This document shows, one piece after another, positions 1-14,438 of a stretch of DNA of 14,438 nucleotides (positions within the stretch are counted from its first letter, which is position 1; the number at the start of each line of letters is the position of its first letter). A program made the translations under genes and the position numbers. Under the pieces are notes generated by a model that saw only the letters and a program-made list of their open reading frames with translations, did no database searches and was not told where the DNA came from. Source of the stretch: a virus (taxonomy: Duplodnaviria; Heunggongvirae; Uroviricota; Caudoviricetes). Location of the stretch: the IMG/VR virus record IMGVR_UViG_2606217109_000003, positions 1 to 14,438 of that record; one strand, 5' to 3'.

Positions 1-1152
1 ATGAGACGAACATTTACAGCAGAGGAAAAAGCCTCTGTTTTTGAACTATGGAAGAACGGAACAGGCTTCAGTGAAATAGCGAATATCCTGGGTTCAAAAC
101 CCGGAACGATCTTCACTATGTTAAGGGATACTGGCGGCATAAAACCCCATGAGCGTAAGCGGGCTGTAGCTCACCTGACACTGTCTGAGCGCGAGGAGAT
201 ACGAGCTGGTTTGTCAGCCAAAATGAGCATTCGTGCGATAGCTACTGCGCTGAATCGCAGTCCTTCGACGATCTCACGTGAAGTTCAGCGTAATCGGGGC
301 AGACGCTATTACAAAGCTGTTGATGCTAATAACCGAGCCAACAGAATGGCGAAAAGGCCAAAACCGTGCTTACTGGATCAAAATTTACCATTGCGAAAGC
401 TTGTTCTGGAAAAGCTGGAGATGAAATGGTCTCCAGAGCAAATATCAGGATGGTTAAGGCGAACAAAACCACGTCAAAAAACGCTGCGAATATCACCTGA
501 GACAATTTATAAAACGCTGTACTTTCGTAGCCGTGAAGCGCTACACCACCTGAATATACAGCATCTGCGACGGTCGCATAGCCTTCGCCATGGCAGGCGT
601 CATACCCGCAAAGGCGAAAGAGGTACGATTAACATAGTGAACGGAACACCAATTCACGAACGTTCCCGAAATATCGATAACAGACGCTCTCTGGGACATT
701 GGGAGGGCGATTTAGTCTCAGGTACAAAAAACTCTCATATAGCCACACTTGTAGACCGAAAATCACGTTATACGATCATCCTTAGACTCAGGGGCAAAGA
801 TTCTGTCTCAGTAAATCAGGCTCTTACCGACAAATTCCTGAGTTTACCGTCAGAACTCAGAAAATCACTGACATGGGACAGAGGAATGGAACTGGCCAGA
901 CATCTAGAATTTACTGTCAGCACCGGCGTTAAAGTTTACTTCTGCGATCCTCAGAGTCCTTGGCAGCGGGGAACAAATGAGAACACAAATGGGCTAATTC
1001 GGCAGTACTTTCCTAAAAAGACATGTCTTGCCCAATATACTCAACATGAACTAGATCTGGTTGCTGCTCAGCTAAACAACAGACCGAGAAAGACACTGAA
1101 GTTCAAAACACCGAAAGAGATAATTGAAAGGGGTGTTGCATTGACAGATTGA
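1..1152 (+). CDS. insI: IS30 family transposase (InsI)
   Basis: Full-length 383-aa ORF with ATG at 1 and TGA at 1150-1152; the sequence is recognisable as IS30 InsI. Confidence 0.93.
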   Translation: MRRTFTAEEKASVFELWKNGTGFSEIANILGSKPGTIFTMLRDTGGIKPHERKRAVAHLTLSEREEIRAGLSAKMSIRAIATALNRSPSTISREVQRNRGRRYYKAVDANNRANRMAKRPKPCLLDQNLPLRKLVLEKLEMKWSPEQISGWLRRTKPRQKTLRISPETIYKTLYFRSREALHHLNIQHLRRSHSLRHGRRHTRKGERGTINIVNGTPIHERSRNIDNRRSLGHWEGDLVSGTKNSHIATLVDRKSRYTIILRLRGKDSVSVNQALTDKFLSLPSELRKSLTWDRGMELARHLEFTVSTGVKVYFCDPQSPWQRGTNENTNGLIRQYFPKKTCLAQYTQHELDLVAAQLNNRPRKTLKFKTPKEIIERGVALTD

Positions 1153-1159
1153 ATCTACA
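1134..1159. repeat. IS30 right terminal inverted repeat (about 26 bp)
   Basis: Terminal sequence of the IS overlapping the 3' end of the transposase ORF; the element boundary at 1159 is defined by the switch to cII codons on the minus strand. Confidence 0.75.
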
Positions 1160-1203
1160 CTCTCGATTCGTAGTGCCTCGTTGCGTTTGTTTGCACGAAC
1201 CAT
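1160..1203 (-). pseudogene. cII: cII 5' fragment (first ~15 codons), truncated by the IS30 insertion
   Basis: Minus-strand reading from ATG (complement of 1201-1203) gives MVRANKRNEALRIES, the N-terminus of lambda CII, then runs into the IS30 end. The rest of cII must lie beyond the IS, outside the window. Confidence 0.85.
1181..1194 (+). promoter_or_regulatory. pRE CII-binding repeat TTGC-N6-TTGC (-35 region of pRE, reading toward cro antisense and cI)
   Basis: TTGCgtttgtTTGC overlaps the cII start codon, as in lambda. Confidence 0.6.
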
Positions 1204-1282
1204 ATGTAAGTATTTCCTTAGATAACAATTGATTGAATGTATGCAAATAAATGCATACACCATAGGTGTGGTTTAATTGGAT

Positions 1283-1297
1283 GCCCTTTTTCAGGGC
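1283..1297 (-). promoter_or_regulatory. nutR boxB hairpin
   Basis: GCCCTTTTTCAGGGC on the plus strand is the reverse complement of lambda nutR boxB GCCCTGAAAAAGGGC, located downstream of cro in the pR transcript. Confidence 0.75.
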
Positions 1298-1321
1298 TGT
1301 GATGTGTAAGAGCGGTGTTAT

Positions 1322-1531
<210 letters not shown>

Positions 1532-1548
1532 TTAGTACATGCAATTAT

Positions 1549-1612
1549 TATCACCGCTAGAGGTAAAACAGTCAACACGCACGGTGTTAGATATTTATCC
1601 CTTGCGGTGATA
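1549..1612. promoter_or_regulatory. Right operator OR1 (1549-1565), OR2 (1573-1589), OR3 (1596-1612) with divergent pR (toward cro) and pRM (toward cI)
   Basis: Three 17-bp lambda-type operators: TATCACCGCTAGAGGTA, CAACACGCACGGTGTTA, TATCCCTTGCGGTGATA. pR -10 GATAAT / -35 TTGACT are present on the minus strand; pRM TAGATA (1588-1593) and TAGATT (1611-1616) precede the leaderless cI ATG at 1623. Confidence 0.9.
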
Positions 1613-1619
1613 GATTTAA

Positions 1620-2336
<717 letters not shown>

Positions 2337-2375
2337 TGAAACCACTTTTATCTACAATTTACAGGGCGGTAAACA

Positions 2376-2933
2376 TTGGCAAAAATAGATGATTATCAGC
2401 CAAGCCAAGTAGAAGTTGATAAAGTACTTTATTGTAAAAAAATAGTTAACTTTTCTGGCGTTAAATGGAAACAGAAACCAAGTCGCTCTGATATGTGGCT
2501 ACAAGCTCATATCATCCCCTTGGATGAGGATTGTATACCTATACAAGGGCTAAAGTTTGAACTGAAATGGAAACCAGATCAGGATTCAGAACCTGATGAC
2601 CCGATTTCTTACCCTAAAATAAATATTATTGCTTTCTATCATAACAAGAGGGTTTTCGCGGTAGATACCTATCACTTTGACAAACACACGAATAGTTACA
2701 AGGTCGATCATCCGAAGTACCAAGATATCATTTACGGTGCTCATTACCATGTATACTATGAAGAAGCTGGATACTATAGTGATAGAATAGCGTTTCCAAT
2801 CGAAGATGACATAAACCCAGATGACCTGGTAGGGTATTGGAATTACTTCTGTAAACATCTGAACATAACTTACTCTGGGAGAATACCTTTACCGCTTGAA
2901 GATGAGTCGGGGCAAATGGGGTTTGGAATATGA
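2376..2933 (+). CDS. hypothetical protein, cassette gene A in the rexA position (185 aa, acidic, Tyr/His/Asp-rich, no TM segment)
   Basis: ORF immediately downstream of cI on the same strand. The first in-frame start is TTG at 2376 (a TAA lies in frame at 2370-2372), with a G-rich SD-like cagggcgg upstream. It overlaps the next ORF in an ATGA arrangement. Not RexA by length or sequence. Confidence 0.6.
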   Translation: MAKIDDYQPSQVEVDKVLYCKKIVNFSGVKWKQKPSRSDMWLQAHIIPLDEDCIPIQGLKFELKWKPDQDSEPDDPISYPKINIIAFYHNKRVFAVDTYHFDKHTNSYKVDHPKYQDIIYGAHYHVYYEEAGYYSDRIAFPIEDDINPDDLVGYWNYFCKHLNITYSGRIPLPLEDESGQMGFGI

Positions 2934-3682
2934 TGTGCTCAACAGTGATCTCACAACTAGGTTTCGAATGCCATCCAATAGGCAAGACCTTGAGAATTAT
3001 CAGTCCATTCACTTACTGTGATGATGGAGAGCATGTCGGTGCCTTTATCCGTGAAGTCAATGGTAGGTATTTAGTTAGTGACAGATGCGATGCCTTAATG
3101 AATATGGAGGCAAGAGGGATCTCGCTTACCAAAAAACGACTTGATGAGATACGACAATTACTGCTTAAAGAAGGCGCAGAACTCAATGCTCGAGGAGAAA
3201 TCATTGCTTGGGCAACAGAAAAGGATGTCGGTGCGATTACATCGAACATAATTAGAGCTGGTATACTCGCATCAACTTTGTCGTTAGACTGGTATCAGCC
3301 AGTTCAAGCTGAAAAGTTTGAAAGTATGGTTATTGATTATCTATATCACACAGAGCTTAGAGAGGCACTTTCTCTTCGTGAAAACGTATATGGCTTGAGT
3401 GGACATCAAATTACCGTCCCTGTAACAATAAAAACCGACATACCTAAATACGTTTTTACATCAAGCGTGAAACACGGAGGAAGCTGGAATAGTGCTTACT
3501 CATTGCTTGGGAAACTAATTGATCTTAAAGCTTCAAGTGAGGAGTATAACAACAGATTTGTTGTTATAGACAGCGAAGCAATTGGTGATCAAATGCAACA
3601 ACTCTCCTTACTCTTCCATGAATCAAGCCAAGTTCTACCATTCTCCAAAAGAGAGACTTGGATTAAGAGACTTGCAGCATAA
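2930..3682 (+). CDS. hypothetical protein, cassette gene B in the rexB position (250 aa, soluble-looking)
   Basis: ATG at 2930 (or 2933) overlaps the stop of gene A (ATGATG / TGA 2931-2933), implying translational coupling. Followed at once by a rho-independent terminator. Not RexB (RexB is a 144-aa polytopic membrane protein). Confidence 0.65.
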   Translation: MMCSTVISQLGFECHPIGKTLRIISPFTYCDDGEHVGAFIREVNGRYLVSDRCDALMNMEARGISLTKKRLDEIRQLLLKEGAELNARGEIIAWATEKDVGAITSNIIRAGILASTLSLDWYQPVQAEKFESMVIDYLYHTELREALSLRENVYGLSGHQITVPVTIKTDIPKYVFTSSVKHGGSWNSAYSLLGKLIDLKASSEEYNNRFVVIDSEAIGDQMQQLSLLFHESSQVLPFSKRETWIKRLAA

Positions 3683-3686
3683 TACA

Positions 3687-3713
3687 ACCCGGCCTCAGCG
3701 CCGGGTTTTCTTT
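3687..3713 (+). terminator. rho-independent terminator ending the cI-cassette transcript (tImm-equivalent)
   Basis: aCCCGGC-ctcagc-GCCGGGt stem-loop followed by TTTTCTTT, 5 bp after the gene B stop. Confidence 0.65.
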
Positions 3714-3870
3714 GCCTCACGATCGCCCCACCTAAAAACACATAACCAATTGTATTTATTGGAAAATAAATAGATACAACTCACTAAACAACGCAATTCT
3801 GATCTCTCCTTACATCGCCGAGGCAATACACTCACTCGAAAAAATAAATCCATATAAAAAACATACAGAT

Positions 3871-3933
3871 AACCATTTGCGGTGATAAAATATCTCTAGC
3901 GGTGTTGACACAAATACCACTAGCGGTGATACT
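3871..3933 (+). promoter_or_regulatory. Left operator OL3 (3871-3887), OL2 (3891-3907), OL1 (3915-3931) with pL (-35 TTGACA 3905-3910, -10 GATACT 3928-3933) reading toward N
   Basis: AACCATTTGCGGTGATA, TATCTCTAGCGGTGTTG, TACCACTAGCGGTGATA: lambda-type 17-mers, each with one difference from the canonical sequences as I recall them. Confidence 0.88.
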
Positions 3934-3989
3934 TAGCTCGTCAGCAGGACGCACTAACCACCATTGAAGGTGAGGCTCTTAAAAATTTA

Positions 3990-4004
3990 GCCCTGAAGAA
4001 GGGC
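3990..4004 (+). promoter_or_regulatory. nutL boxB (boxA-like GCTCTTAAAAATTTA lies just upstream at about 3975-3989)
   Basis: GCCCTGAAGAAGGGC is the lambda nutL boxB hairpin, between pL and N. Confidence 0.85.
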
Positions 4005-4114
4005 AGCATTCAAAGCAGAAAGCTTTGAGTAGCGCGAAATGCAGCTGCAAGACAGCAACCGTGGGGATAAGCATCACGGCGCGTTACTCAAAGCTAACTG
4101 ACAGGAGAATCCAG

Positions 4115-4438
4115 ATGGATGCACAAACACGCCGCCGCGAACGTCGCGCAGAGAAACAGGCTCAATGGAAAGCAGCAAATCCCCTGTTGGTTGGGGTAAG
4201 CGCAAAACCAGTTAACCGCCCTATTCTCTCGCTGAATCGCAAACCGAAATCACGAGTAGAAAGCGCACTGAATCCGATAGACCTTACAGTGCTGGCTGAA
4301 TACCACGAACAGATTGAAAGCAACCTGCAACGTATTGAGCGCAAGAATCAGCGCACATGGTACAGCAAGCCTGGCGAACGCGGCATAACATGCAGTGGAC
4401 GCCAGAAAATTAAGGGAAAATCGATTCCTCTTACCTAG
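4115..4438 (+). CDS. N: antitermination protein N
   Basis: 107-aa ORF from ATG 4115 (MDAQTRRRERRAEKQAQWKAANPLLVG...), with the arginine-rich boxB-binding motif at the N-terminus. The ORF-track start at 4025 is an upstream in-frame extension through the nutL leader. Confidence 0.95.
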   Translation: MDAQTRRRERRAEKQAQWKAANPLLVGVSAKPVNRPILSLNRKPKSRVESALNPIDLTVLAEYHEQIESNLQRIERKNQRTWYSKPGERGITCSGRQKIKGKSIPLT

Positions 4439-4993
4439 TTACTTAGATATTGGCCTTGGCTTTATCTCAATATTATATGGATCATAGCTGGCAACTAATT
4501 CAGTCCAGTAAATATCCTCAATAGGGAATAATATATGCTTCCCGTTCCATCGGGAAAAAGTTTTGTTCAACACACCAAGCTCAATCAACTCACTAATGTA
4601 TGGGAATTGTTTTGATGTAACCACATACTTCCTGCCTTCATTAAGGGCTGCGCACAAAACCATAGATTGCTCTTCTGTAAGGTTTTGAATTACCGATCGC
4701 ACTTTATCGTTTTGCATCTTAATGCGTTTTCTTAGCTTAAATCGCTTATATCTGGCGCTGGCAATAGCTGATAATCGATGCACATTAATTGCTAGCGAAA
4801 ATGCAAGAGCAAAGACGAAAACATGCCACACATGAGGAATACCGATTCTCTCATTAACATATTCAGGCCAGTTATCTGGGCTTAAAAGCAGAAGTCCAAC
4901 CCAGATAACGATCATATACATGGTTCTCTCCAGAGGTTCATTACTGAACACTCGTCCGAGAATAACGAGTGGATCCATTTCTATACTCATCAA
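4439..4993 (-). CDS. sieB: superinfection exclusion protein B (membrane protein)
   Basis: 184-aa minus-strand ORF with two hydrophobic segments, at the lambda sieB position (convergent with N, between N and ral). The exact start is uncertain (MMSIEM... versus the internal MDPLV...). Confidence 0.8.
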   Translation of the reverse strand: MMSIEMDPLVILGRVFSNEPLERTMYMIVIWVGLLLLSPDNWPEYVNERIGIPHVWHVFVFALAFSLAINVHRLSAIASARYKRFKLRKRIKMQNDKVRSVIQNLTEEQSMVLCAALNEGRKYVVTSKQFPYISELIELGVLNKTFSRWNGKHILFPIEDIYWTELVASYDPYNIEIKPRPISK

Positions 4994-5117
4994 ACTGTAG
5001 GGGTTGTAATAGTTTATCCGATTTCTCGCTGTAGGGGTACACGAGAACCACCGAGCCTGATGTGGTTAAAAGACAGGCACAATCTTTACTACCGCAATCC
5101 ACTATTTAAGGTGATAT

Positions 5118-5204
5118 ATGGAAGAAGAATTTGAAGAGTTCGAAGAGCATCCGCAGGATGTAATGGAACAGTACCAGGACTATCCGTATGACTACGACTA
5201 TTGA
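5118..5204 (+). CDS. small acidic ORF, 28 aa (lambda orf28-like)
   Basis: ATG 5118 to TGA 5202-5204 encodes MEEEFEEFEEHPQDVMEQYQDYPYDYDY and overlaps the ral start. Below the 60-aa cutoff of the ORF track, found by reading the sequence. Confidence 0.5.
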   Translation: MEEEFEEFEEHPQDVMEQYQDYPYDYDY

Positions 5205-5367
5205 TAAGAATCAATGGTGTGGACAATTCAAGCGATGCAATGGATGCAAGCTGCAATCGGAATGCATGGTTAAGCCTGAAGAAATGTTTCCTGTAATGGA
5301 AGATGGGAAATATGTCGATAAATGGGCAATACGAACGACGGCAATGATTGCCAGAGAACTTGGTTAA
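5188..5367 (+). CDS. ral: restriction alleviation protein Ral, apparently truncated at codon 60
   Basis: MTTTIDKNQWCGQFKRCNGCKLQSECMVKPEEMFPVMEDGKYVDKWAIRTTAMIARELG, then TAA (5365-5367). The next codons in frame read QNNKAA then TGA (5386-5388), which matches the C-terminus of the 66-aa lambda Ral as I recall it. Confidence 0.75.
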   Translation: MTTTIDKNQWCGQFKRCNGCKLQSECMVKPEEMFPVMEDGKYVDKWAIRTTAMIARELG

Positions 5368-5524
5368 CAGAACAACAAAGCTGCCTGATAGTGGCCTTTC
5401 TTTTTGGCATAAATAACAGAATAAACACTGCACTGTGTATTCATTCCAACGAGTGAATACACGGAGCAATGTCGCTCGTAACTAAACAGGAGCCGACTTG
5501 TTCTGATTATTGGAAATCTTCTTT

Positions 5525-5551
5525 GCCCTCCAGTGTGAGGGCGATTTTTTA
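5525..5551 (+). terminator. rho-independent terminator in the early-left transcript (tL-type)
   Basis: GCCCTC-cagtgt-GAGGGC stem-loop followed by gATTTTTTAT. Confidence 0.6.
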
Positions 5552-5570
5552 TCTATGAGGATATGAACAG

Positions 5571-5939
5571 ATGTCAAACATCAAAAAATACATCATTGAT
5601 TACGACTGGAAAGCATCAATAGAAATTGAAATCGACCATGACGTAATGACAGAGGAAAAACTTCACCAGATTAATAATTTCTGGTCAGACTCTGAATACC
5701 GACTCAATAAACACGGCTCTGTATTAAATGCTGTATTAATCATGCTGGCGCAACATGCTCTGCTTATAGCAATTTCAAGCGACTTAAATGCATATGGTGT
5801 TGTGTGTGAGTTCGACTGGAATGATGGAAATGGTCAGGAAGGATGGCCTCCAATGGATGGTAGCGAAGGAATAAGAATTACCGATATCGATACATCAGGA
5901 ATATTTGATTCAGATGATATGACTATCAAAGCCGCCTGA
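5571..5939 (+). CDS. ea10: early-left protein Ea10-like (122 aa)
   Basis: 369-bp ORF with SD tGAGGA, at the position and with the length of lambda ea10 between ral and cIII. Confidence 0.65.
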   Translation: MSNIKKYIIDYDWKASIEIEIDHDVMTEEKLHQINNFWSDSEYRLNKHGSVLNAVLIMLAQHALLIAISSDLNAYGVVCEFDWNDGNGQEGWPPMDGSEGIRITDIDTSGIFDSDDMTIKAA

Positions 5940-6011
5940 GCGCGGCGTTACCGCATACCAATAACGCTTCACTCGAGGCGTTTTTCGTTATGTATAAATA
6001 AGGAGCACACC

Positions 6012-6176
6012 ATGCAATATGCCATTGCAGGGTGGCCTGTTGCTGGCTGCCCTTCCGAATCTTTACTTGAACGAATCACCCGTAAATTACGTGACGGATG
6101 GAAACGCCTTATCGACATACTTAATCAGCCAGGAGTCCCAAAAAATGGATCAAACACTTATGGCTATCCAGACTAA
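6012..6176 (+). CDS. cIII: CIII (FtsH inhibitor stabilising CII)
   Basis: 54-aa [57 protein letters not shown] with SD AAGGAG. It is below the ORF-track cutoff; the 6019-6288 track ORF is a different-frame artefact running into kil. Confidence 0.9.
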   Translation: MQYAIAGWPVAGCPSESLLERITRKLRDGWKRLIDILNQPGVPKNGSNTYGYPD

Positions 6177-6288
6177 ATTCACTATCGCCACTTTTATTGG
6201 CGATGAAAAGATGTTTCGTGAGGCCGTCGACGCTTATAAAAAATGGATATTAATACTGAAACTGAGATCAAGCAAAAGCATTCACTAA
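6145..6288 (+). CDS. kil: Kil (host cell-division inhibitor)
   Basis: 47-aa [50 protein letters not shown] overlapping the cIII 3' end and the gam 5' end, as in lambda. Confidence 0.85.
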
Positions 6289-6659
6289 CCCCCTTTCCTG
6301 TTTTCCTAATCAGCCCGGCATTTCGCGGGCGATATTTTCACAGCTATTTCAGGAGTTCAGCCATGAACGCTTATTACATTCAGGATCGTCTTGAGGCTCA
6401 GAGCTGGACGCGTCACTACCAGCAGCTCGCCCGTGAAGAGAAAGAGGCAGAACTGGCAGACGACATGGAAAAAAGCCTGCCCCAGCACCTGTTTGAATCG
6501 CTATGCATCGATCATTTGCAACGCCACGGGGCCAGCAAAAAAGCCATTACCCGTGCGTTTGATGACGATGTTGAGTTTCAGGAGCGCATGGCAGAACACA
6601 TCCGGTACATGGTTGAAACCATTGCTCACCACCAGGTTGATATTGATTCAGAGGTATAA
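6243..6659 (+). CDS. gam: Gam (RecBCD inhibitor)
   Basis: 138-aa ORF recognisable as lambda Gam ([55 protein letters not shown]...). Confidence 0.95.
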
Positions 6660-6664
6660 AACGG

Positions 6665-7450
6665 ATGAGTACAGCACTCGCAACGCTGGCTGGGAAGCTG
6701 GCTGAACGTGTCGGCATGGATTCTGTCGACCCACAGGAACTGATCACCACTCTTCGCCAGACGGCATTTAAAGGTGATGCCAGCGATGCGCAGTTCATCG
6801 CATTGTTGATCGTCGCCAACCAGTACGGCCTTAATCCGTGGACGAAAGAAATTTACGCCTTCCCTGACAAGCAGAACGGCATCGTTCCGGTGGTGGGCGT
6901 TGATGGCTGGTCCCGTATCATCAATGAAAACCAGCAGTTTGATGGCATGAACTTTGAGCAGGACAATGAATCATGTACATGCCGGATTTACCGCAAGGAC
7001 CGTAATCATCCGATCTGCGTTACCGAGTGGATGGATGAATGCCGCCGCGAACCATTCAAAACCCGCGAAGGCAGAGAAATCACCGGACCGTGGCAGTCGC
7101 ATCCCAAACGGATGTTACGGCATAAAGCCATGATTCAGTGTGCCCGTCTGGCCTTCGGATTTGCTGGTATCTATGACAAGGATGAAGCCGAGCGCATTGT
7201 CGAAAATACTGCATACACTGCAGAACGTCAGCCGGAACGCGACATCACTCCGGTTAACGATGAAACCATGCAGGAGATTAACACTCTGCTGATCGCCCTG
7301 GATAAAACATGGGATGACGACTTATTGCCGCTCTGTTCCCAGATATTTCGCCGCGACATTCGCGCATCGTCAGAACTGACACAGGCCGAAGCAGTGAAAG
7401 CTCTTGGATTCCTGAAACAGAAAGCCACTGAGCAGAAGGTGGCAGCATGA
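6665..7450 (+). CDS. bet: Red beta single-strand annealing protein
   Basis: 261-aa ORF recognisable as lambda Beta; its stop overlaps the exo start (ATGA). Confidence 0.97.
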
Positions 7451-8127
7451 CACCGGACATTATCCTGCAGCGTGCCGGGATCGACGTGAGAGCTGTCGAA
7501 CAGGGAGATGATGCGTGGCACAAATTACGGCTCGGCGTCATCACAGCTTCAGAAGTTCATAACGTAATAGCAAAACCCCGCTCCGGAAAAAAGTGGCCTG
7601 ACATGAAAATGTCCTACTTCCACACCCTGCTGGCTGAGGTTTGCACCGGTGTGGCTCCGGAAGTTAATGCTAAGGCGCTGGCCTGGGGAAAACAGTACGA
7701 GAACGACGCCAGAGCCCTGTTTGAGTTTACTTCCGGCGTGAATGTTACTGAATCCCCGATCATCTATCGCGACGAAAGTATGCGCACCGCCTGCTCTCCC
7801 GATGGTTTATGCAGTGACGGCAACGGCCTTGAACTGAAATGCCCGTTTACCTCCCGGGATTTCATGAAATTCCGGCTCGGTGGTTTCGAGGCCATAAAGT
7901 CGGCTTACATGGCCCAGGTGCAGTACAGCATGTGGGTGACGCGAAAAGATGCCTGGTACTTTGCCAACTATGACCCACGAATGAAGCGTGAAGGCCTGCA
8001 TTATGTCGTGGTTGAGCGGGATGAAAATTACATGGCGAGTTTTGACGAGATGGTGCCGGAGTTCATCGAAAAAATGGACGAGGCACTGGCTGAAATTGGT
8101 TTTGTATTTGGGGAGCAATGGCGATGA
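7447..8127 (+). CDS. exo: Red alpha 5'-3' exonuclease
   Basis: 226-aa ORF recognisable as lambda Exo (MTPDIILQR...GEQWR). Confidence 0.97.
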
Positions 8128-8306
8128 CGCATCCTCACGATAATATCCGGGTGGGCGCGATCACTTTCGTCTACTCCATTACAAAGCGAGGCTGGGTATT
8201 TCCCGGCCTTTCTGTTATCAGAAATCCCCTGAAAGCACAGCGACTGGCTGAGGAGATAAATAATAAACGGGGAGCTGTATGCACAAAGCATCTCCCGTTG
8301 AGTTAA
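8124..8306 (+). CDS. small early-left protein, lambda orf60a-like (60 aa from ATG 8124)
   Basis: ATG 8124 overlaps the exo stop (ATGA); the 183-bp length matches lambda orf60a. The ORF-track start at 8118 is two codons further upstream. Confidence 0.6.
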
Positions 8307-8470
8307 GAACGAGTATCGAGATGGCACATAGCCTCGCTCAAATTGGAGTCAGGTTTGTGCCAATATCAGTAGAAACAGACGAAGAATTTCATACGTTAGC
8401 CGCATCCCTTTCACAAAAGCTGGAAATGATGGTGGCGAAAGCAGAAGCAGATGAGAGAGACCAGGTATGA
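8279..8470 (+). CDS. small early-left protein, lambda orf63-like (63 aa)
   Basis: 192-bp ORF overlapping the 3' end of the preceding ORF, at the lambda orf63 position. Confidence 0.6.
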   Translation: MHKASPVELRTSIEMAHSLAQIGVRFVPISVETDEEFHTLAASLSQKLEMMVAKAEADERDQV

Positions 8471-8550
8471 CAACCACTGAATGCATTTTTCTGGCAGCGG
8501 GCTTCATATTCTGTGTGCTTATGCTTGCCGACATGGGGCTTGTTCAATGA
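8467..8550 (+). CDS. putative small hydrophobic peptide (27 aa)
   Basis: MTTTECIFLAAGFIFCVLMLADMGLVQ; the ATG overlaps the stop of the upstream ORF (ATGA) and its own stop overlaps the next ATG (ATGA). Hydrophobic enough for a single TM helix. Confidence 0.3.
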   Translation: MTTTECIFLAAGFIFCVLMLADMGLVQ

Positions 8551-8762
8551 CACCTCAGCAAGAAAACGCCCTTCGCAGCATTGCCCGTCAGGCTAATTCT
8601 GAAATCAAAAAAGCCAGACAGCAGTTTCCGGATAAAAACGTCGATGACATTTGCCGTAGCGTACTAAAGAAGCACCGCGAAACGGTAACGCTGATGGGAT
8701 TCACACCGACTCATTTAAGCCTGGCGATCGGCATGTTGAACGGCGTCTTTAAGGAACGGTGA
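8547..8762 (+). CDS. hypothetical small basic protein (71 aa from ATG 8547; a 93-aa upstream extension is possible)
   Basis: ORF-track ORF 8481-8762. I prefer the internal ATG at 8547, which is translationally coupled to the upstream small ORF. Lies in the lambda orf61 region but the ORF structure differs from what I recall for lambda. Confidence 0.45.
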   Translation: MTPQQENALRSIARQANSEIKKARQQFPDKNVDDICRSVLKKHRETVTLMGFTPTHLSLAIGMLNGVFKER

Positions 8763-8860
8763 ACATGAAAAGCAAAATCATCAGGGAGCTACAGGCTCCT
8801 TTTTTATTATTCGCATTCACCCTCAAGCGTATTAACCAACAATTCAGGGATTAATGAAAG

Positions 8861-9082
8861 ATGGCAGACATAATTGATTCAGCATCAGAAATTGAAGAAT
8901 TACAGCGCAACACAGCAATAAAAATGCGCCGCCTGAACCACCAGGCTATATCTGCCACTCATTGTTGTGAGTGTGGCGATCCGATAGATGAACGAAGACG
9001 ACTGGCCGTTCAGGGTTGTCGGACTTGTGCCAGTTGCCAGCAAGATCTGGAGCTTATCAGTAAACAGAGAGGTTCGAAGTGA
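8861..9082 (+). CDS. TraR/DksA-family C4 zinc-finger protein (lambda Orf73-like)
   Basis: 73-aa ORF with CCECGDPID...CRTCASC, the typical TraR/DksA C-terminal zinc finger, at the position of lambda orf73. Confidence 0.8.
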   Translation: MADIIDSASEIEELQRNTAIKMRRLNHQAISATHCCECGDPIDERRRLAVQGCRTCASCQQDLELISKQRGSK

Positions 9083-9486
9083 GCGAAATTAACTCTCAGG
9101 CACTGCGTGAAGCGGCAGAGAAAGCCGGTGAAGATAAGTGGCAGGCTAAAAAAATAAATGGTGATTTTTTCGTTATTCGTCACGGTAGTTATACAAGACA
9201 GCATGGCTACACATCGTATCAACCCATTGCGGAGATTGATTGTAAGCCAGTCCGGGATTTTGTTGCCAAGGCTAATCCGGCTACCGTGCTGGAATTACTG
9301 GATGAACTGGAAGCAGCAAAAAAGCGCATTGCAGAACTGGAAGCGCGGGAAATACTGCTCCCGGAACGTAGCAGCATGCTTCATCGAACAGATTTTCACG
9401 ATGATTACCAAACGGTAATGGCATACAAAGTTTCTGAAGTCATCGATGCAATCCGCGCTACTGGCATTCGCATCAAAGGAGAGTGA
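9079..9486 (+). CDS. ea22: Ea22-like protein, short allele (135 aa, GTG start)
   Basis: Begins (M)SEINSQALREAAE and ends IRIKGE like lambda Ea22 as I recall it, but is about 47 aa shorter than the 182-aa lambda protein. Central coiled-coil segment (ATVLELLDELEAAKKRIAELEAREIL). The GTG start overlaps the orf73 stop (GTGA). Confidence 0.6.
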   Translation: MSEINSQALREAAEKAGEDKWQAKKINGDFFVIRHGSYTRQHGYTSYQPIAEIDCKPVRDFVAKANPATVLELLDELEAAKKRIAELEAREILLPERSSMLHRTDFHDDYQTVMAYKVSEVIDAIRATGIRIKGE

Positions 9487-9487
9487 G

Positions 9488-10243
9488 ATGATTCACTACC
9501 ACGGTGGGCCTATTACTCCTGATACGTGCGCAATGAGAGCATGGAAAGGGCGACATGCGTTTATCAGTTTTGCGCATTCAGGCCAGATCAATCTCGCGGC
9601 TGAATACTGTCAGTCGTTCGCGCTGGACAACGGTGCATTCACCGCCTGGAAAGCAGCTGGCAAAAACAAAATCGACTGGAGCGATTACTACGAGTTTGTT
9701 GCTCGCTGGAAGAATCACCCAGGATTCGATTTTGCCATTATCCCGGATGTTATTGATGGCGGAGAGGAGGAAAATGATGCGCTTCTGAATGAGTGGCCTC
9801 ACGGAAAACTAGCTGGCGTTCCAGTGTGGCACATGAATGAAAGTGACGAGCGATTTATTCATTTGTGCAATGAGTTTCCGCGAGTGGCTATCGGTAGTTG
9901 TGGCGACTATGACGTAAAGCGCCCAACTCTTGCGGTAGCCAGAATGAAAGACCTGATTCGTCACATTGTTGATGGGCATGGTCAGCCGGTTACGAAACTA
10001 CATGGATTGCGCATGTTAAATCCGCTGATATTCACAAAATTACCCTTAGCCAGCGCAGATAGTACGAACGTCGCTCGAAACATCGGTATTGATAAAGCCT
10101 GGTCTGGGGCTTATGCACCTGCAAGTAAAGAGACACGCGCAGCATTAATGGTAGAACGGATTGAGGCACACAATAGCCCTGGTTCTCTTGCGTATTGTGA
10201 ACAACGCGACCGCTTTGAAATGCAATTGCAACTAGCAGTTTAA
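9488..10243 (+). CDS. hypothetical protein with tRNA-guanine transglycosylase (TGT)/DpdA-like motifs (251 aa)
   Basis: ATG 9488 with strong SD AAGGAGAG, 1 bp after the ea22 stop. The motifs FALDNGAF and ADSTNVARNIG resemble TGT DSGGFQ and D...TRNARNG in the same order and with similar spacing. No counterpart in lambda as I recall it. The functional call is a hypothesis. Confidence 0.65.
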   Translation: MIHYHGGPITPDTCAMRAWKGRHAFISFAHSGQINLAAEYCQSFALDNGAFTAWKAAGKNKIDWSDYYEFVARWKNHPGFDFAIIPDVIDGGEEENDALLNEWPHGKLAGVPVWHMNESDERFIHLCNEFPRVAIGSCGDYDVKRPTLAVARMKDLIRHIVDGHGQPVTKLHGLRMLNPLIFTKLPLASADSTNVARNIGIDKAWSGAYAPASKETRAALMVERIEAHNSPGSLAYCEQRDRFEMQLQLAV

Positions 10244-10253
10244 GGACTAACAA

Positions 10254-10829
10254 ATGACCACTATTACCAAAGAACGTATTGAATTGTTCATTAAAAATCC
10301 GCTTGAAAACGGGCTTACTCGTGGCGAACAAATGGAACTGGCACGAATTGCACTGGCATCACTGGGAGCAGAACCTGTAAGCCAAACTTACAACTTGCCA
10401 GAATTAATCGAAGGCATGGAGGTTTCCATTGATGTAAGCACTTGTGATGCGGATTTAGGTAATCGCTATTTCGGTACCGTCACCGAGGCGTTAGAACTTG
10501 ATACTGCCAAGAATGGTTACATCCTCCTGGTTCAGGACGCAGAGCCAAACTTCGATATAAATGGCAATTCTCCGGTAACTCCGGATGGTTGGGTTATAGT
10601 GCCGAAGAAACTAACCGCTGAGAACGGCGCTAAGGGTGTGCTATCCGGTGAATTTTCAGAAACTACGTTTATAAGCTGCCCGGAATGCTTTGGTGATGAT
10701 GATTGCGAAACTTGTGACGGCAGCGGAAGAATCGAAATCAAGGTTCCAGTCAGTTGGACAACTATCAAAACTATTTGGGCTAAAGGGTGTGAGTACTTTT
10801 CAATAGTAGCACCGCAGCAAGATGGGTGA
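10254..10829 (+). CDS. hypothetical acidic protein with C-terminal zinc-ribbon-like CPEC...CETCDGSG motif (191 aa)
   Basis: ATG 10254 with SD TAAGGA, 10 bp after the previous stop. CxxC-N8-CxxCxGxG motif. No lambda counterpart as I recall it. Confidence 0.65.
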   Translation: MTTITKERIELFIKNPLENGLTRGEQMELARIALASLGAEPVSQTYNLPELIEGMEVSIDVSTCDADLGNRYFGTVTEALELDTAKNGYILLVQDAEPNFDINGNSPVTPDGWVIVPKKLTAENGAKGVLSGEFSETTFISCPECFGDDDCETCDGSGRIEIKVPVSWTTIKTIWAKGCEYFSIVAPQQDG

Positions 10830-10913
10830 TGAAAACAAGTATTTATAACTTAAAAGCATTAAAAAATCGCTTATAGATCAAAAGAAATCTACGTCAAATA
10901 TTACTATATTTCA

Positions 10914-11198
10914 ATGTGTTATAATTACCCCGTCCATAAAATGGGGGGACACAAAATGTTCAAACGCTGCATCACCAAGTGTGGAAGCACACCTGACATC
11001 CAAGCTTTTATTAATGAAGATGGTAAGCTTGTTGTTGAGAGGAGTGGTCCTTTTATTAGCAAACAACTTATCATTACCTCTCCAGCGGAGATGGCCGGGG
11101 AATGGATAGTTTCTGAACCAGAGGAGTTGCACATCCCGCTTCCTTATGGCCCTCAGGGACTGATTTATAACCGTTATGTTCAGAAGGAGGCGGGTTGA
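10914..11198 (+). CDS. hypothetical small protein (94 aa, or 80 aa from ATG 10956)
   Basis: ORF preceded by an AT-rich, promoter-like intergenic region (10830-10913). Cys/His-rich N-terminus if 10914 is used; a G-rich SD-like run precedes the ATG at 10956. Confidence 0.45.
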   Translation: MCYNYPVHKMGGHKMFKRCITKCGSTPDIQAFINEDGKLVVERSGPFISKQLIITSPAEMAGEWIVSEPEELHIPLPYGPQGLIYNRYVQKEAG

Positions 11199-11457
11199 CA
11201 ATGTCAGGCATAACATCGCCGAGAAATCGAAAGAAAAACAGAACAAGGTAAACGTTGACCTTGCAGCATCAGGCATGGAGTACAGAGAGCGCCTTAACAT
11301 ACCTGTTATCACTGAGCAGGTATCATGAGAGCAACCTGAGCACTCACGCGAGTATTTCATGGAGCGCATCAGATACTATCGCGAGCAGTCGTTAAACATG
11401 CCCAAGGGAAGCAACCCATGGTATATCGATATGGATGAACAGAACGCCAAGAAGTAA
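11176..11457 (+). pseudogene. ea8.5: ea8.5-position ORF (93 codons) interrupted by a single in-frame TGA at codon 51
   Basis: ATG 11176 to TAA 11455-11457 is exactly 282 bp with one in-frame TGA (11326-11328). Both halves have protein-like, helical, charged composition. Size and distance from xis match the lambda ea8.5 coordinates as I remember them. Confidence 0.4.
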
Positions 11458-11477
11458 ACGCAATTTGAACGAATGCG

Positions 11478-11503
11478 AACCCGCCGAGTGCGGGTTTTCT
11501 TTT
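11478..11503 (+). terminator. rho-independent terminator
   Basis: aaCCCGC-cgagt-GCGGGtt followed by TTTCTTTT, 20 bp after the ea8.5-position stop. Confidence 0.55.
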
Positions 11504-11546
11504 ATCTGAACTCGCTACGGCGAGTTTTGTTTTATGGCGATGATAA

Positions 11547-11714
11547 ATGCACTTCCGAGTTACAGGTGAATGGAATGGAGAACCATTCAACAGAGTTATC
11601 GAAGCCGAGAACATCAGCGACTGCTATAACCACTGGATGCTGTGGGCGCAGATAGCACATGCAGACGTAACCAATATTCGAATTGAAGAACTGAAAGAAC
11701 ACCAAGCCGCCTGA
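11547..11714 (+). CDS. small ORF, 55 aa (hypothetical; lies between ea8.5 and xis)
   Basis: MHFRVTGEWNGEPFNRVIEAENISDCYNHWMLWAQIAHADVTNIRIEELKEHQAA; protein-like composition but weak SD. Not in the ORF track (under 60 aa). Confidence 0.4.
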   Translation: MHFRVTGEWNGEPFNRVIEAENISDCYNHWMLWAQIAHADVTNIRIEELKEHQAA

Positions 11715-11727
11715 TGGCGGTTTTTTC
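11706..11727 (+). terminator. rho-independent terminator upstream of xis
   Basis: GCCGCC-tgat-GGCGG followed by TTTTTTCTT. Confidence 0.5.
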
Positions 11728-11753
11728 TTGCGTGTAATTGCGGAGACTTTGCG

Positions 11754-11972
11754 ATGTACTTGACACTTCAGGAGTGGAACGCTCGCCAGCGACGCCCAAG
11801 AAGCCTTGAAACAGTTCGTCGATGGGTGCGCGAATGCAGGATATTCCCTCCTCCGGTTAAGGATGGAAGAGAATATCTGTTCCACGAATCAGCGGTAAAG
11901 GTTGACTTAAATCGACCAGTAACAGGTAGCCTTTTGAAGAGGATCAGAAATGGGAAGAAGGCGAAGTCATGA
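11754..11972 (+). CDS. xis: excisionase
   Basis: 72-aa ORF MYLTLQEWNARQRRPRSLETVRRWVRECRIFPPPVKDGREYLFHESAVKVDLNRPVTGSLLKRIRNGKKAKS, matching lambda Xis as I recall it; overlaps the int start. Confidence 0.97.
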   Translation: MYLTLQEWNARQRRPRSLETVRRWVRECRIFPPPVKDGREYLFHESAVKVDLNRPVTGSLLKRIRNGKKAKS

Positions 11973-13020
11973 GCGCCGGGATTTACCCCCTAACCTTTAT
12001 ATAAGAAACAATGGATATTACTGCTACAGGGACCCAAGGACGGGTAAAGAGTTTGGATTAGGCCGAGACAGGCGAATCGCAATCACTGAAGCTATACAGG
12101 CCAACATTGAGTTATTTTCAGGACACAAACACAAGCCTCTGACAGCGAGAATCAACAGTGATAATTCCGTTACGTTACATTCATGGCTTGATCGCTACGA
12201 AAAAATCCTGGCCAGCAGAGGAATCAAGCAGAAGACACTCATAAATTACATGAGCAAAATTAAAGCAATAAGGAGGGGTCTGCCTGATGCTCCACTTGAA
12301 GACATCACCACAAAAGAAATTGCGGCAATGCTCAATGGATACATAGACGAGGGCAAGGCGGCGTCAGCCAAGTTAATCAGATCAACACTGAGCGATGCAT
12401 TCCGAGAGGCAATAGCTGAAGGCCATATAACAACAAACCCTGTCGCTGCCACTCGCGCAGCAAAATCAGAGGTAAGGAGATCAAGACTTACGGCTGACGA
12501 ATACCTGAAAATTTATCAAGCAGCAGAATCATCACCATGTTGGCTCAGACTTGCAATGGAACTGGCTGTTGTTACCGGGCAACGAGTTGGTGATTTATGC
12601 GAAATGAAGTGGTCTGATATCGTAGATGGATATCTTTATGTCGAGCAAAGCAAAACAGGCGTAAAAATTGCCATCCCAACAGCATTGCATGTTGATGCTC
12701 TCGGAATATCAATGAAGGAAACACTTGATAAATGCAAAGAGATTCTTGGCGGAGAAACCATAATTGCATCTACTCGTCGCGAACCGCTTTCATCCGGCAC
12801 AGTATCAAGGTATTTTATGCGCGCACGAAAAGCATCAGGTCTTTCCTTCGAAGGGGATCCGCCTACCTTTCACGAGTTGCGCAGTTTGTCTGCAAGACTC
12901 TATGAGAAGCAGATAAGCGATAAGTTTGCTCAACATCTTCTCGGGCATAAGTCGGACACCATGGCATCACAGTATCGTGATGACAGAGGCAGGGAGTGGG
13001 ACAAAATTGAAATCAAATAA
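11950..13020 (+). CDS. int: tyrosine integrase
   Basis: 356-aa ORF recognisable as lambda Int (N-terminal arm-binding domain, C-terminal catalytic domain with the R...HxxR...Y signature). Confidence 0.97.
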   Translation: MGRRRSHERRDLPPNLYIRNNGYYCYRDPRTGKEFGLGRDRRIAITEAIQANIELFSGHKHKPLTARINSDNSVTLHSWLDRYEKILASRGIKQKTLINYMSKIKAIRRGLPDAPLEDITTKEIAAMLNGYIDEGKAASAKLIRSTLSDAFREAIAEGHITTNPVAATRAAKSEVRRSRLTADEYLKIYQAAESSPCWLRLAMELAVVTGQRVGDLCEMKWSDIVDGYLYVEQSKTGVKIAIPTALHVDALGISMKETLDKCKEILGGETIIASTRREPLSSGTVSRYFMRARKASGLSFEGDPPTFHELRSLSARLYEKQISDKFAQHLLGHKSDTMASQYRDDRGREWDKIEIK

Positions 13021-13108
13021 TGATTTTATTTTGACTGATAGTGACCTGTTCGTTGCAACAAATTGATAAGCAATGCTTTTTTATAATGCCAACTTAGTAT
13101 AAAAAAGC
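13021..13108. other. attL: attL: prophage P' arm (Int arm-type and IHF sites) plus the 15-bp core TTAGTATAAAAAAGC (13094-13108)
   Basis: The core is the reverse complement of the lambda att core GCTTTTTTATACTAA. An arm-type site TGATAGTGACCTG lies at about 13036-13048. Host ybhC sequence begins about 47 bp after the core. Confidence 0.85.
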
Positions 13109-13154
13109 AGGCTTCAACGGATTCATTTTTCTATTTCATAGCCCGGAGCAACCT

Positions 13155-14438
13155 GTGAACACATTTTCAGTTTCCCGTCTGGCGCTGGCATTGGCTTTTG
13201 GCGTGACGCTGACCGCCTGTAGCTCAACACCACCCGATCAACGTCCTTCTGATCAAACCGCGCCTGGTACCTCTTCTCGCCCGATTCTGTCGGCAAAAGA
13301 AGCGCAGAATTTCGATGCTCAACACTATTTTGCATCCCTGACACCAGGTGCTGCAGCGTGGAATCCTTCCCCGATTACCCTGCCTGCGCAACCTGACTTT
13401 GTTGTCGGCCCGGCGGGTACTCAAGGTGTAACGCATACCACGATTCAGGCGGCGGTAGATGCGGCAATTATCAAGCGCACTAACAAGCGCCAGTATATTG
13501 CCGTGATGCCTGGTGAGTATCAGGGAACGGTGTATGTCCCTGCTGCTCCGGGTGGAATTACTCTGTACGGTACAGGTGAAAAACCGATTGATGTGAAGAT
13601 TGGGCTTTCCCTTGATGGGGGCATGAGCCCTGCCGACTGGCGTCACGACGTCAACCCGCGCGGCAAATATATGCCAGGTAAACCAGCGTGGTATATGTAC
13701 GATAGCTGCCAGAGCAAACGCAGCGACAGTATCGGTGTTCTCTGCTCTGCGGTCTTCTGGTCACAAAACAATGGCCTGCAACTGCAAAATCTGACCATCG
13801 AAAACACGCTGGGCGATAGCGTAGATGCAGGTAACCATCCGGCGGTGGCACTGCGTACTGATGGTGACCAGGTACAGATTAACAACGTTAACATTCTCGG
13901 TCGTCAGAACACCTTCTTTGTCACCAACAGCGGTGTGCAGAACCGTCTGGAAACCAACCGTCAGCCGCGTACGCTGGTGACCAACAGCTACATTGAAGGG
14001 GATGTGGATATCGTTTCTGGTCGCGGCGCAGTGGTGTTCGATAACACCGAATTCCGCGTGGTGAACTCACGTACTCAGCAAGAAGCGTATGTGTTTGCAC
14101 CGGCTACGCTGTCCAACATTTACTACGGTTTCCTCGCCGTAAACAGCCGTTTCAATGCTTTCGGTGATGGTGTGGCGCAACTGGGCCGCTCGCTGGATGT
14201 TGATGCCAATACCAACGGTCAGGTGGTGATCCGTGATAGCGCCATCAACGAAGGTTTTAACACGGCTAAACCGTGGGCCGATGCGGTGATCTCTAATCGT
14301 CCGTTTGCGGGTAATACCGGCAGCGTAGATGATAACGACGAAATACAGCGCAATCTGAATGACACTAACTACAACCGCATGTGGGAATACAATAACCGCG
14401 GCGTGGGTAGTAAAGTGGTTGCAGAGGCGAAGAAGTAA
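13155..14438 (+). CDS. ybhC: host outer-membrane lipoprotein YbhC (pectinesterase-fold family)
   Basis: 427-aa ORF with GTG start and lipoprotein signal (lipobox LTAC). Degenerate pectinesterase-like motifs (GEYQGTVYV, AVALR, DIVSG). It is the gal-side neighbour of att-lambda in E. coli. Confidence 0.88.
   Translation: MNTFSVSRLALALAFGVTLTACSSTPPDQRPSDQTAPGTSSRPILSAKEAQNFDAQHYFASLTPGAAAWNPSPITLPAQPDFVVGPAGTQGVTHTTIQAAVDAAIIKRTNKRQYIAVMPGEYQGTVYVPAAPGGITLYGTGEKPIDVKIGLSLDGGMSPADWRHDVNPRGKYMPGKPAWYMYDSCQSKRSDSIGVLCSAVFWSQNNGLQLQNLTIENTLGDSVDAGNHPAVALRTDGDQVQINNVNILGRQNTFFVTNSGVQNRLETNRQPRTLVTNSYIEGDVDIVSGRGAVVFDNTEFRVVNSRTQQEAYVFAPATLSNIYYGFLAVNSRFNAFGDGVAQLGRSLDVDANTNGQVVIRDSAINEGFNTAKPWADAVISNRPFAGNTGSVDDNDEIQRNLNDTNYNRMWEYNNRGVGSKVVAEAKK

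Follow-up and report, generated by a model that had tools for sequence, protein, structure and literature searches.

What does a 251-residue protein with no counterpart in phage lambda do in the early-left region of a lambda-immunity prophage, and does the gene directly behind it belong to the same system? The question is raised by a 14,438-nucleotide (nt) stretch of Caudoviricetes DNA (hereafter the window; positions 1 to 14,438 of IMG/VR record IMGVR_UViG_2606217109_000003), in which two open reading frames (ORFs) lie in the pL operon. A preliminary description, made from the sequence alone, had proposed that the first encodes a DpdA-type DNA transglycosylase of the tRNA-guanine transglycosylase (TGT) superfamily and the second a zinc-ribbon partner. 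According to the present analysis, ORF1 is probably a lone phage DpdA, that is, a minimal zinc-free enzyme of the TGT superfamily with a triosephosphate isomerase (TIM) barrel, acting as a DNA-guanine transglycosylase. ORF2 is an independent, recombinationally shuffled gene of the ea region and is not a partner of DpdA. The reading of the motifs was right for ORF1 and wrong for ORF2.

9488-10243, plus strand: ORF1, 251 amino acids (aa), dpdA-like, probable lone ('singleton') phage DpdA of the TGT superfamily, a minimal TIM barrel that lacks the zinc subdomain
10254-10829, plus strand: ORF2, 191 aa, acidic mosaic ea-region protein, with a common leader module (residues 1-40) and a conserved module (residues 41-191)

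ORF1 as a member of the phage DpdA family

The two ORFs are as tightly packed as had been described, each with a Shine-Dalgarno sequence of its own (AGGAG at 9477-9481, 6 nt upstream of the ORF1 start codon; AAGGA, 7 nt before the ATG of ORF2), and both are genuine genes rather than chance ORFs. Position 9488 is taken as the true start of ORF1 because its homologues are 248-252 aa long across genera and begin with MIHYHGGP; an ATG at 9446, which gave a longer ORF1 in the ORF finder, was rejected on these lengths and on the position of the Shine-Dalgarno sequence. The family comprises thousands of homologues (1552 representative clusters at E <= 0.001), and among 5426 complete Escherichia coli genomes at least 204 (3.8%) have a copy of dpdA. 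Comparison with the copy in the Salmonella phage BTP1 gave a ratio of nonsynonymous to synonymous substitution (dN/dS) of ~0.02 (dN 0.041; dS ~2, saturating), and the gene is under purifying selection. That the gene is decaying, or is a passenger without function in a defective prophage, is most improbable: an insertion-sequence transposase of the IS30 family next to cro, which apparently interrupts cII, and the RefSeq label 'hypothetical protein' for the 251-aa product (WP_000582234.1) would suit such a passenger, whereas the low dN/dS, the steady length across genera, the conserved catalytic residues and the presence of the gene in the active phages BTP1, SPN3UB, SfI and AH07 would not.

ORF1 falls in the PHROGs family phrog_887, 'queuine tRNA-ribosyltransferase', with an E value of 2e-103, and a TBLASTN search of phage genomes matched 108 records. 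Its identity is 93% to the proteins of BTP1 (SIU02687) and SPN3UB (YP_007011024), 89% to that of Pantoea phage AH07, 68% to those of Shigella phage SfI (YP_009147480) and Vibrio phage Athena1 (AUG84879), and 35-38% to those of HK106 (YP_007151699; 36%), SEN1, Salmonella phage 7-11 (36%) and Pantoea phage MED16. Hutinet et al. 2019 (Nat Commun, Supplementary Data 1) list BTP1, SPN3UB, SfI, HK106, SEN1, 7-11, SE131, PEAT2 and Athena1 with DpdA, and BTP1, SPN3UB, SfI and Athena1 appear there as carriers without a pathway for 7-cyano-7-deazaguanine (preQ0); furthermore, the 'singleton' DpdAs from phages of gamma-proteobacteria formed a separate cluster in that study.

By every trait that could be tested, ORF1 belongs to this singleton cluster. 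Like the DpdAs of BTP1, SPN3UB, SfI, HK106 and Athena1, it is ~250 aa long and is unaccompanied by preQ0-synthesis genes, and in BTP1, SfI and HK106 dpdA is likewise placed with the recombination genes on one side and xis/int on the other; no substantive difference from these proteins was found, ORF1 being the allele found in E. coli, within a prophage of lambda immunity. The genetic context was surveyed in 80 viral contigs encoding homologues 67-100% identical to ORF1, over 6 kb around the gene. Genes for FolE, QueD, QueC, QueE and YhhQ were found at none of these 80 loci, and no genes for the synthesis of preQ0 or archaeosine (G+) were found among the ORFs of the window, which covers only 14.4 kb of the prophage. 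Because preQ0-synthesis genes are absent near the 80 loci, the clade of ORF1 is truly 'singleton'. ORF1 lacks the marks of canonical TGT enzymes (PF01702 and zinc), of bacterial Dpd systems (the PADLOC model and DpdB) and of Cap10 (its operon).

A link to enzymes of established activity is provided by the Queuovirinae phages CAjan and 9g, whose DpdAs are experimentally validated DNA preQ0 transglycosylases; deletion of dpdA from CAjan abolishes 2'-deoxy-preQ0 (dPreQ0), which replaces ~32% of G in CAjan DNA. ORF1 is related to CAjan DpdA by BLASTP (E 3e-9 over 152 aa) and by hhalign (probability 93%, E 3e-7). Both proteins have the LDxGAF, H, IGG, KLH and DS motifs, and neither has a CxCxxC motif or a Pfam match. 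However, their identity is only ~21-25%, the CAjan protein is 306 aa long, and CAjan dpdA lies within a folE-queD-queC-queE cluster that has no equivalent beside ORF1.

At the level of the family, this identification was already known, since a 2019 publication had assigned near-identical proteins of lambdoid and P22-like phages to DpdA, and the idea of a DpdA in such phages is not new, the carriers being those in Hutinet et al. 2019. The RefSeq viral records of BTP1, SfI and SPN3UB already use the name 'queuine tRNA-ribosyltransferase'. Given this naming and the 2019 listing of the 93%-identical BTP1 and SPN3UB proteins, the identification of ORF1 in itself adds little.

Fold and active site of ORF1

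An AlphaFold2 model built from 54 homologues is an eight-stranded beta/alpha (TIM) barrel (predicted local distance difference test score, pLDDT, 81.7; predicted template modelling score, pTM, 0.82). Among solved structures its best matches are Cap10, the DpdA of Salmonella Montevideo (PDB 7UI4) and archaeosine TGT. Among the predicted viral structures of BFVD there were 27 matches at E <= 1e-3, the next having an E value of 0.047, and all of the named ones are phage 'queuine tRNA-ribosyltransferase' (DpdA). The structural match to Cap10 raises the alternative that ORF1 joins a 7-deazaguanine base to protein rather than to DNA. This is exceedingly unlikely, as the resemblance to Cap10 is in fold only and the sequence similarity is to phage DpdAs; furthermore, Cap10 of the type IV cyclic-oligonucleotide-based antiphage signalling system (CBASS) belongs to an operon with the QueC-like Cap9 and a cGAS/DncV-like nucleotidyltransferase (CD-NTase), neither of which is encoded in the window, and the 80 related loci have no QueC-like gene within 6 kb.

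The active site was examined in several alignments, among them a diverse one of eight proteins (ORF1, BTP1, SfI, HK106, MED16, 7-11, Caulobacter phage DMCA and CAjan) and one of 104 sequences (ORF1 and 103 near-full-length representatives 33-55% identical to it). Residues L46, D47, G49, A50, F51, D87, H115, G136, H172, D191 and S192, among others, are invariant in the alignment of eight. In the model the conserved residues lie where strands 3 to 8 end, and the four codons of greatest interest are as follows.

9626-9628, plus strand: Asp47 codon, LDNGAF motif; putative general acid/base, invariant in three alignments, the eight-protein one included
9746-9748, plus strand: Asp87 codon, IIPDVI motif; putative base-recognition aspartate, invariant in the eight-protein alignment with CAjan
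9830-9832, plus strand: H115 codon; putative equivalent of H181 of bacterial DpdA, invariant in two alignments, the eight-protein one included, and present in 101 of 104 sequences
10058-10060, plus strand: Asp191 codon, ADSTN motif; putative catalytic nucleophile, invariant in the same three alignments as Asp47

In the 104-sequence alignment, D47 is kept in 101 sequences, D87 in 102, H115 in 101, G136 in 97, H172 in 94 and D191 in 92. The two motifs singled out in the preliminary description, FALDNGAF (44-51) and ADSTNVARNIG (190-200), are present and contain the conserved D47 and D191, so that the loss of the catalytic aspartates from homologues, which had been named as evidence against the proposal, is not what was found.

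S. Montevideo DpdA has an active site made up of D95 (acid/base), F99, D130, H181, G206/G207, L236 and D256 (nucleophile), and guanine exchange is abolished by D95A and by D256A (PMC10164549). The residues of ORF1 appear to match this set by order and spacing. Asp47, at the end of strand 3, would correspond by strand order and spacing to Asp95 of this enzyme and to Asp89 of E. coli Tgt, with Phe51 following four residues on, as Phe99 does in bacterial DpdA; Asp87 would correspond to Asp130. Asp191, which aligns with the SCDSS motif of CAjan DpdA, is the likely equivalent of Asp256 of bacterial DpdA and of Asp264 of E. coli Tgt in the motif FDCVMPTRNARNG. The comparison with E. coli Tgt drawn earlier was a reasonable one, as DSGGFQ at 89, GLAVG at 214 and D264 of the Tgt protein are met in the same order by D47, G136 and D191 of ORF1.

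The lack of the zinc subdomain was likewise correctly recognized, and the assignment of ORF1 to the TGT/DpdA type without it is upheld by phrog_887, by the alignment with CAjan DpdA and by the fold. ORF1 has five scattered cysteines, no CxCxxC motif and only 60 residues after D191, and differs from E. coli Tgt, a PF01702 protein, in lacking a match to that family, the zinc subdomain (CDCYTC at residue 302) and the tRNA-binding C-terminal parts. S. Montevideo DpdA is a 413-aa chain with the insertion Ins8 and a zinc site, and works with the ParB-like ATPase DpdB in the restriction-modification system of an 11-gene dpd cluster (PMC10164549); ORF1 has no Ins8, zinc site, DpdB or dpd cluster and does not match the PADLOC DpdA model, and no ParB-like or DpdC-like ORF was found in the window. 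Loss of the zinc subdomain is thus a trait of the phage enzymes and not of DpdAs generally, because CAjan DpdA has no CxCxxC motif whereas bacterial DpdA retains its zinc site.

Proposed activity and its limits

In E. coli, preQ0 is synthesized by FolE, QueD, QueE and QueC. As judged from lambda biology, ORF1 would probably be made only after infection or induction, from the pL transcript under N antitermination; window 8000-12000 showed no promoter-like site on the plus strand. By analogy with characterized DpdA and TGT enzymes, the protein would flip a guanine out of double-stranded DNA, and homology suggests that the exchange would proceed through a covalent intermediate between Asp191 and the deoxyribose. 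A 7-deazaguanine would then be put in the place of the guanine. Because the prophage has no synthesis genes, ORF1 would need preQ0 from the host pathway, and the inserted preQ0 might later be converted to 7-amido-7-deazaguanine (ADG). The outcome would be sparse, probably sequence-specific 7-deazaguanine marks on the phage DNA, which may blunt some DNA-targeting defences.

There is precedent for activity without a dedicated gene cluster. Expression of 9g DpdA alone in E. coli gave 790 dPreQ0 per 10^6 nt in plasmid DNA (Hutinet et al. 2019). Furthermore, the DNA of phages 7-11 and MED16 contains 2'-deoxy-ADG (dADG); these phages have a lone dpdA that depends on host preQ0, and its product is 35-38% identical to ORF1 over most of its length. 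Both phages are virulent, whereas the prophage with ORF1 is temperate and lambdoid.

Several points nevertheless weigh against reading ORF1 as a DNA-guanine transglycosylase. The levels of modification in these two phages are tiny (50 dADG per 10^6 nt, or 0.02% of G, in 7-11; 354 per 10^6 nt, or 0.13% of G, in MED16), the base is dADG rather than dPreQ0, and MED16 DNA is cut by the restriction enzymes tested. Mycobacteriophage Orion, with a lone DpdA and a host without the pathway, has no modification, and bacterial DpdA requires the ATPase DpdB (PMC10164549), for which the window has no gene. ORF1 itself has no match in Pfam (none at E <= 1, PF01702 included), NCBIfam or the PADLOC DpdA model; searches of PDB sequences with phmmer and with a 54-sequence profile returned chance matches only, and a 23-sequence profile aligned by hhalign with the single E. 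coli Tgt sequence gave a probability of 0.9%, which is not significant. In addition, no member of the close clade of ORF1 has been biochemically characterized: the literature on DpdA with BTP1, SfI, HK106 or 'lambdoid' yielded no experimental work on it, and the BTP1 transcriptome paper does not mention the gene.

The search against PF01702 had been put forward earlier as a check. It was carried out and was negative for ORF1, but it is uninformative: six further DpdAs from phages, CAjan included, likewise gave nothing when scanned against Pfam, and since the validated CAjan enzyme has no match either, the search is invalid as a refutation of DpdA. The trace levels of dADG bear on the anti-restriction role that the preliminary description had assigned to the gene. 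Because the two tested lone-DpdA phages carry only such traces, strong protection by lone DpdAs is unproven, and judged by their example the size of any effect of ORF1 is doubtful; a protective effect, like the substrate, the product and the level of modification, is no more than inferred for ORF1.

The nature of the base also bears on a second alternative, in which ORF1 has the TGT/DpdA fold with a shifted activity: insertion of another base such as ADG, 7-carboxy-7-deazaguanine (CDG) or 7-aminomethyl-7-deazaguanine (preQ1), a tRNA substrate, or mainly base removal as a glycosylase. In its favour, dADG and not dPreQ0 is the base in lone-DpdA phages, for which no DpdC-like amidase is known. 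A shift would accord with the different substrates of the subfamilies DpdA2 and DpdA3, with the separate clustering of singleton DpdAs in the 2019 similarity network, from which the authors raised a possible functional divergence (Hutinet et al. 2019), and with the size of ORF1, which has 251 aa where the 7UI4 chain has 413 aa and is without the large Ins8 insertion. However, the active-site residues required for base exchange are all conserved in the ORF1 family, its context ties it to QueD and DNA methyltransferases and not to tRNA genes, and all DpdAs assayed so far put preQ0 or preQ1 into DNA. A shifted activity is accordingly judged improbable, and insertion of a 7-deazaguanine into DNA remains the preferred activity of ORF1.

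ORF2, neighbouring genes and the prophage setting

The features claimed earlier for ORF2 are real: the protein is acidic (pI 4.2) and has a single zinc knuckle, CPEC...CETCDGSG (CxxC...CxxCxGxG), at residues 142-158. It belongs to phrog_60, of unknown function, and the only match in a Pfam scan was Anti-TRAP at E 0.68. Its AlphaFold2 model, from 22 near-identical sequences, was unusable (pLDDT 37). The NCBI name 'molecular chaperone DnaJ' was rejected as being motif-based only, the protein having no J domain and no repeated CxxCxGxG. Annotation of ORF2 is inconsistent among genomes. In some with 100% identical DNA, RefSeq splits it into a pseudogene fragment and a shorter 'molecular chaperone DnaJ' coding sequence (CDS), as in E. 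coli O157:H16 98-3133 (locus L001), where the split ORF2 lies at 9855-10430 and an IS66-family element (11202-13817) separates the ea region from xis.

As a partner of ORF1, ORF2 might serve as the zinc-ribbon DNA-targeting or accessory subunit of a two-component modification system, and the arrangement invites this view: the genes share a strand with 10 nt between them, both have a Shine-Dalgarno sequence, ORF2 has the cysteine motif, and bacterial DpdA does require a partner, DpdB. The distribution of the two genes makes it very unlikely. When a 1.5-kb query spanning both was searched in E. coli, 1806 genomes matched some part of it and only 30 matched at least 80%, against 204 genomes with dpdA, and the C-terminal module of ORF2, which is mostly met without DpdA, was found at 3-5 of the 80 viral dpdA loci. 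This module (residues 41-191) hardly varies and is joined elsewhere to Ea22-like (PF13935), DUF550 and DUF551 N-termini, fusions that are typical of ea-region mosaicism. The gene 3' of dpdA differs in each phage compared, being an EaA-like dATP/dGTP pyrophosphohydrolase in BTP1, small hypothetical ORFs in SfI, RusA in AH07, a lambdap35 homologue in HK106 and a different gene again in MED16. On the counts of the pair and of the C-terminal module, ORF2 is no partner of DpdA; it is a mosaic module, and dpdA has dozens of different neighbours.

The flanks of dpdA are highly variable over the 80 loci, with 38 upstream and 32 downstream clusters, the latter unrelated. At 14 of them the gene next to the dpdA homologue encodes a Dam or MT-A70 DNA methyltransferase, which suggests a recurring 'DNA-modification corner' in dpdA phages. 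In Caulobacter phage DMCA the dpdA homologue is translationally coupled to QueD (L009, 3705-4726), and the distant relatives include two fusion proteins (P0379 and P0358), in which DpdA is joined to QueD (PTPS) in one case and to a D12 Dam methyltransferase in the other; both could be gene-calling artefacts. In Pantoea phage AH07 a 440-aa ParB-like gene (HTH_ParB; L004, 1682-3004) overlaps the start of the dpdA homologue by 4 nt, and ParB-like genes occur within 6 kb at 4-9 of 80 other dpdA loci, which recalls the bacterial DpdA-DpdB pairing. The AH07 gene was rejected as a DpdB analogue, as it has no PADLOC model match and only the HTH_ParB domain.

The window is the left arm of the prophage, at attB-lambda and adjoining ybhC, with its plus strand in the direction of pL. 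Its genes run in the order cro (minus strand), cI, N, sieB (minus strand), ea10, cIII/kil, gam, bet and exo, followed by three small ORFs, a DksA/TraR-like ORF, an Ea22-like ORF, ORF1, ORF2, a 94-aa ORF, xis, int, attL and ybhC. By BLASTN, window 4089-9120 is 98% identical to lambda NC_001416 35386-30354 and window 11492-13108 is 98.6% identical to lambda 29340-27724, whereas 9121-11491 has no counterpart in NC_001416. ORF1 and ORF2 gave no TBLASTN match to lambda, in agreement with the claim that they are foreign to it. The segment between the two blocks contains the C-terminus of the Ea22-like protein, dpdA, ORF2 and the 94-aa ORF.

9121-11491, plus strand: 2.4-kb segment of the pL (early-left) operon, foreign to lambda and substituted for the body of lambda ea22 and for ea8.5
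9079-9486, plus strand: Ea22-like gene just upstream of dpdA (Pfam PF13935, E 2.6e-17)
10914-11198, plus strand: 94-aa ORF (phrog_9613, function unknown, E 3e-51), roughly at the position of ea8.5

The stop codon of the Ea22-like gene (9484-9486) is separated by 1 nt from the ATG of dpdA, and the same family precedes dpdA in BTP1 and at 20 of the 80 viral loci. The 94-aa ORF was found at only two of the 80.

Three further observations concern other parts of the prophage. An IS30-family transposase (HTH_38 and rve domains) occupies window 1-1152 on the plus strand, next to cro, and lambda homology starts at window 1158, which is lambda 38405, within cII (38360-38653). It thus appears that cII is interrupted by the element immediately to the right of cro; the prophage may be defective, or its control of lysogeny may be altered. 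Directly 3' of cI, rexA/rexB are replaced by two overlapping plus-strand ORFs, 2376-2933 (185 aa) and 2930-3682 (250 aa), at a site that is expressed in lysogens. These are DUF6978-like and DUF1828 proteins and match the PADLOC candidate system PDC-M24 (subunit B at full length, E 5.8e-10; subunit A weakly, E 4.8e-4); they are possibly an uncharacterized prophage defence cassette. Finally, a 73-aa ORF at 8861-9082 on the plus strand encodes a C4 zinc finger of the DksA/TraR type (PF01258, E 5e-9; phrog_54) and is 97% identical to lambda NC_001416 30395-30613, between orf61 and ea22, where the RefSeq lambda record has no CDS.

Current naming of these genes by the NCBI Prokaryotic Genome Annotation Pipeline (PGAP) is misleading, since the E. 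coli copies of dpdA are called 'hypothetical protein' and ORF2 'molecular chaperone DnaJ'. As to function, one may tentatively suppose, as a minority view among the possibilities, that the lone DpdA of lambdoid and P22-like phages uses host preQ0 to place a few sequence-specific dPreQ0 or dADG marks, without zinc or DpdB, and that it serves a purpose other than bulk anti-restriction. If so, the marks might act as a 'self' signal to Dpd-type systems that restrict DNA without 7-deazaguanine, or alternatively as an epigenetic signal in lytic growth. For the role of a lone DpdA, no setting is more tractable than a lambda-immunity prophage of E. coli, which can be induced and recombineered and for which host mutants in queC, queD, queE and queF are available.

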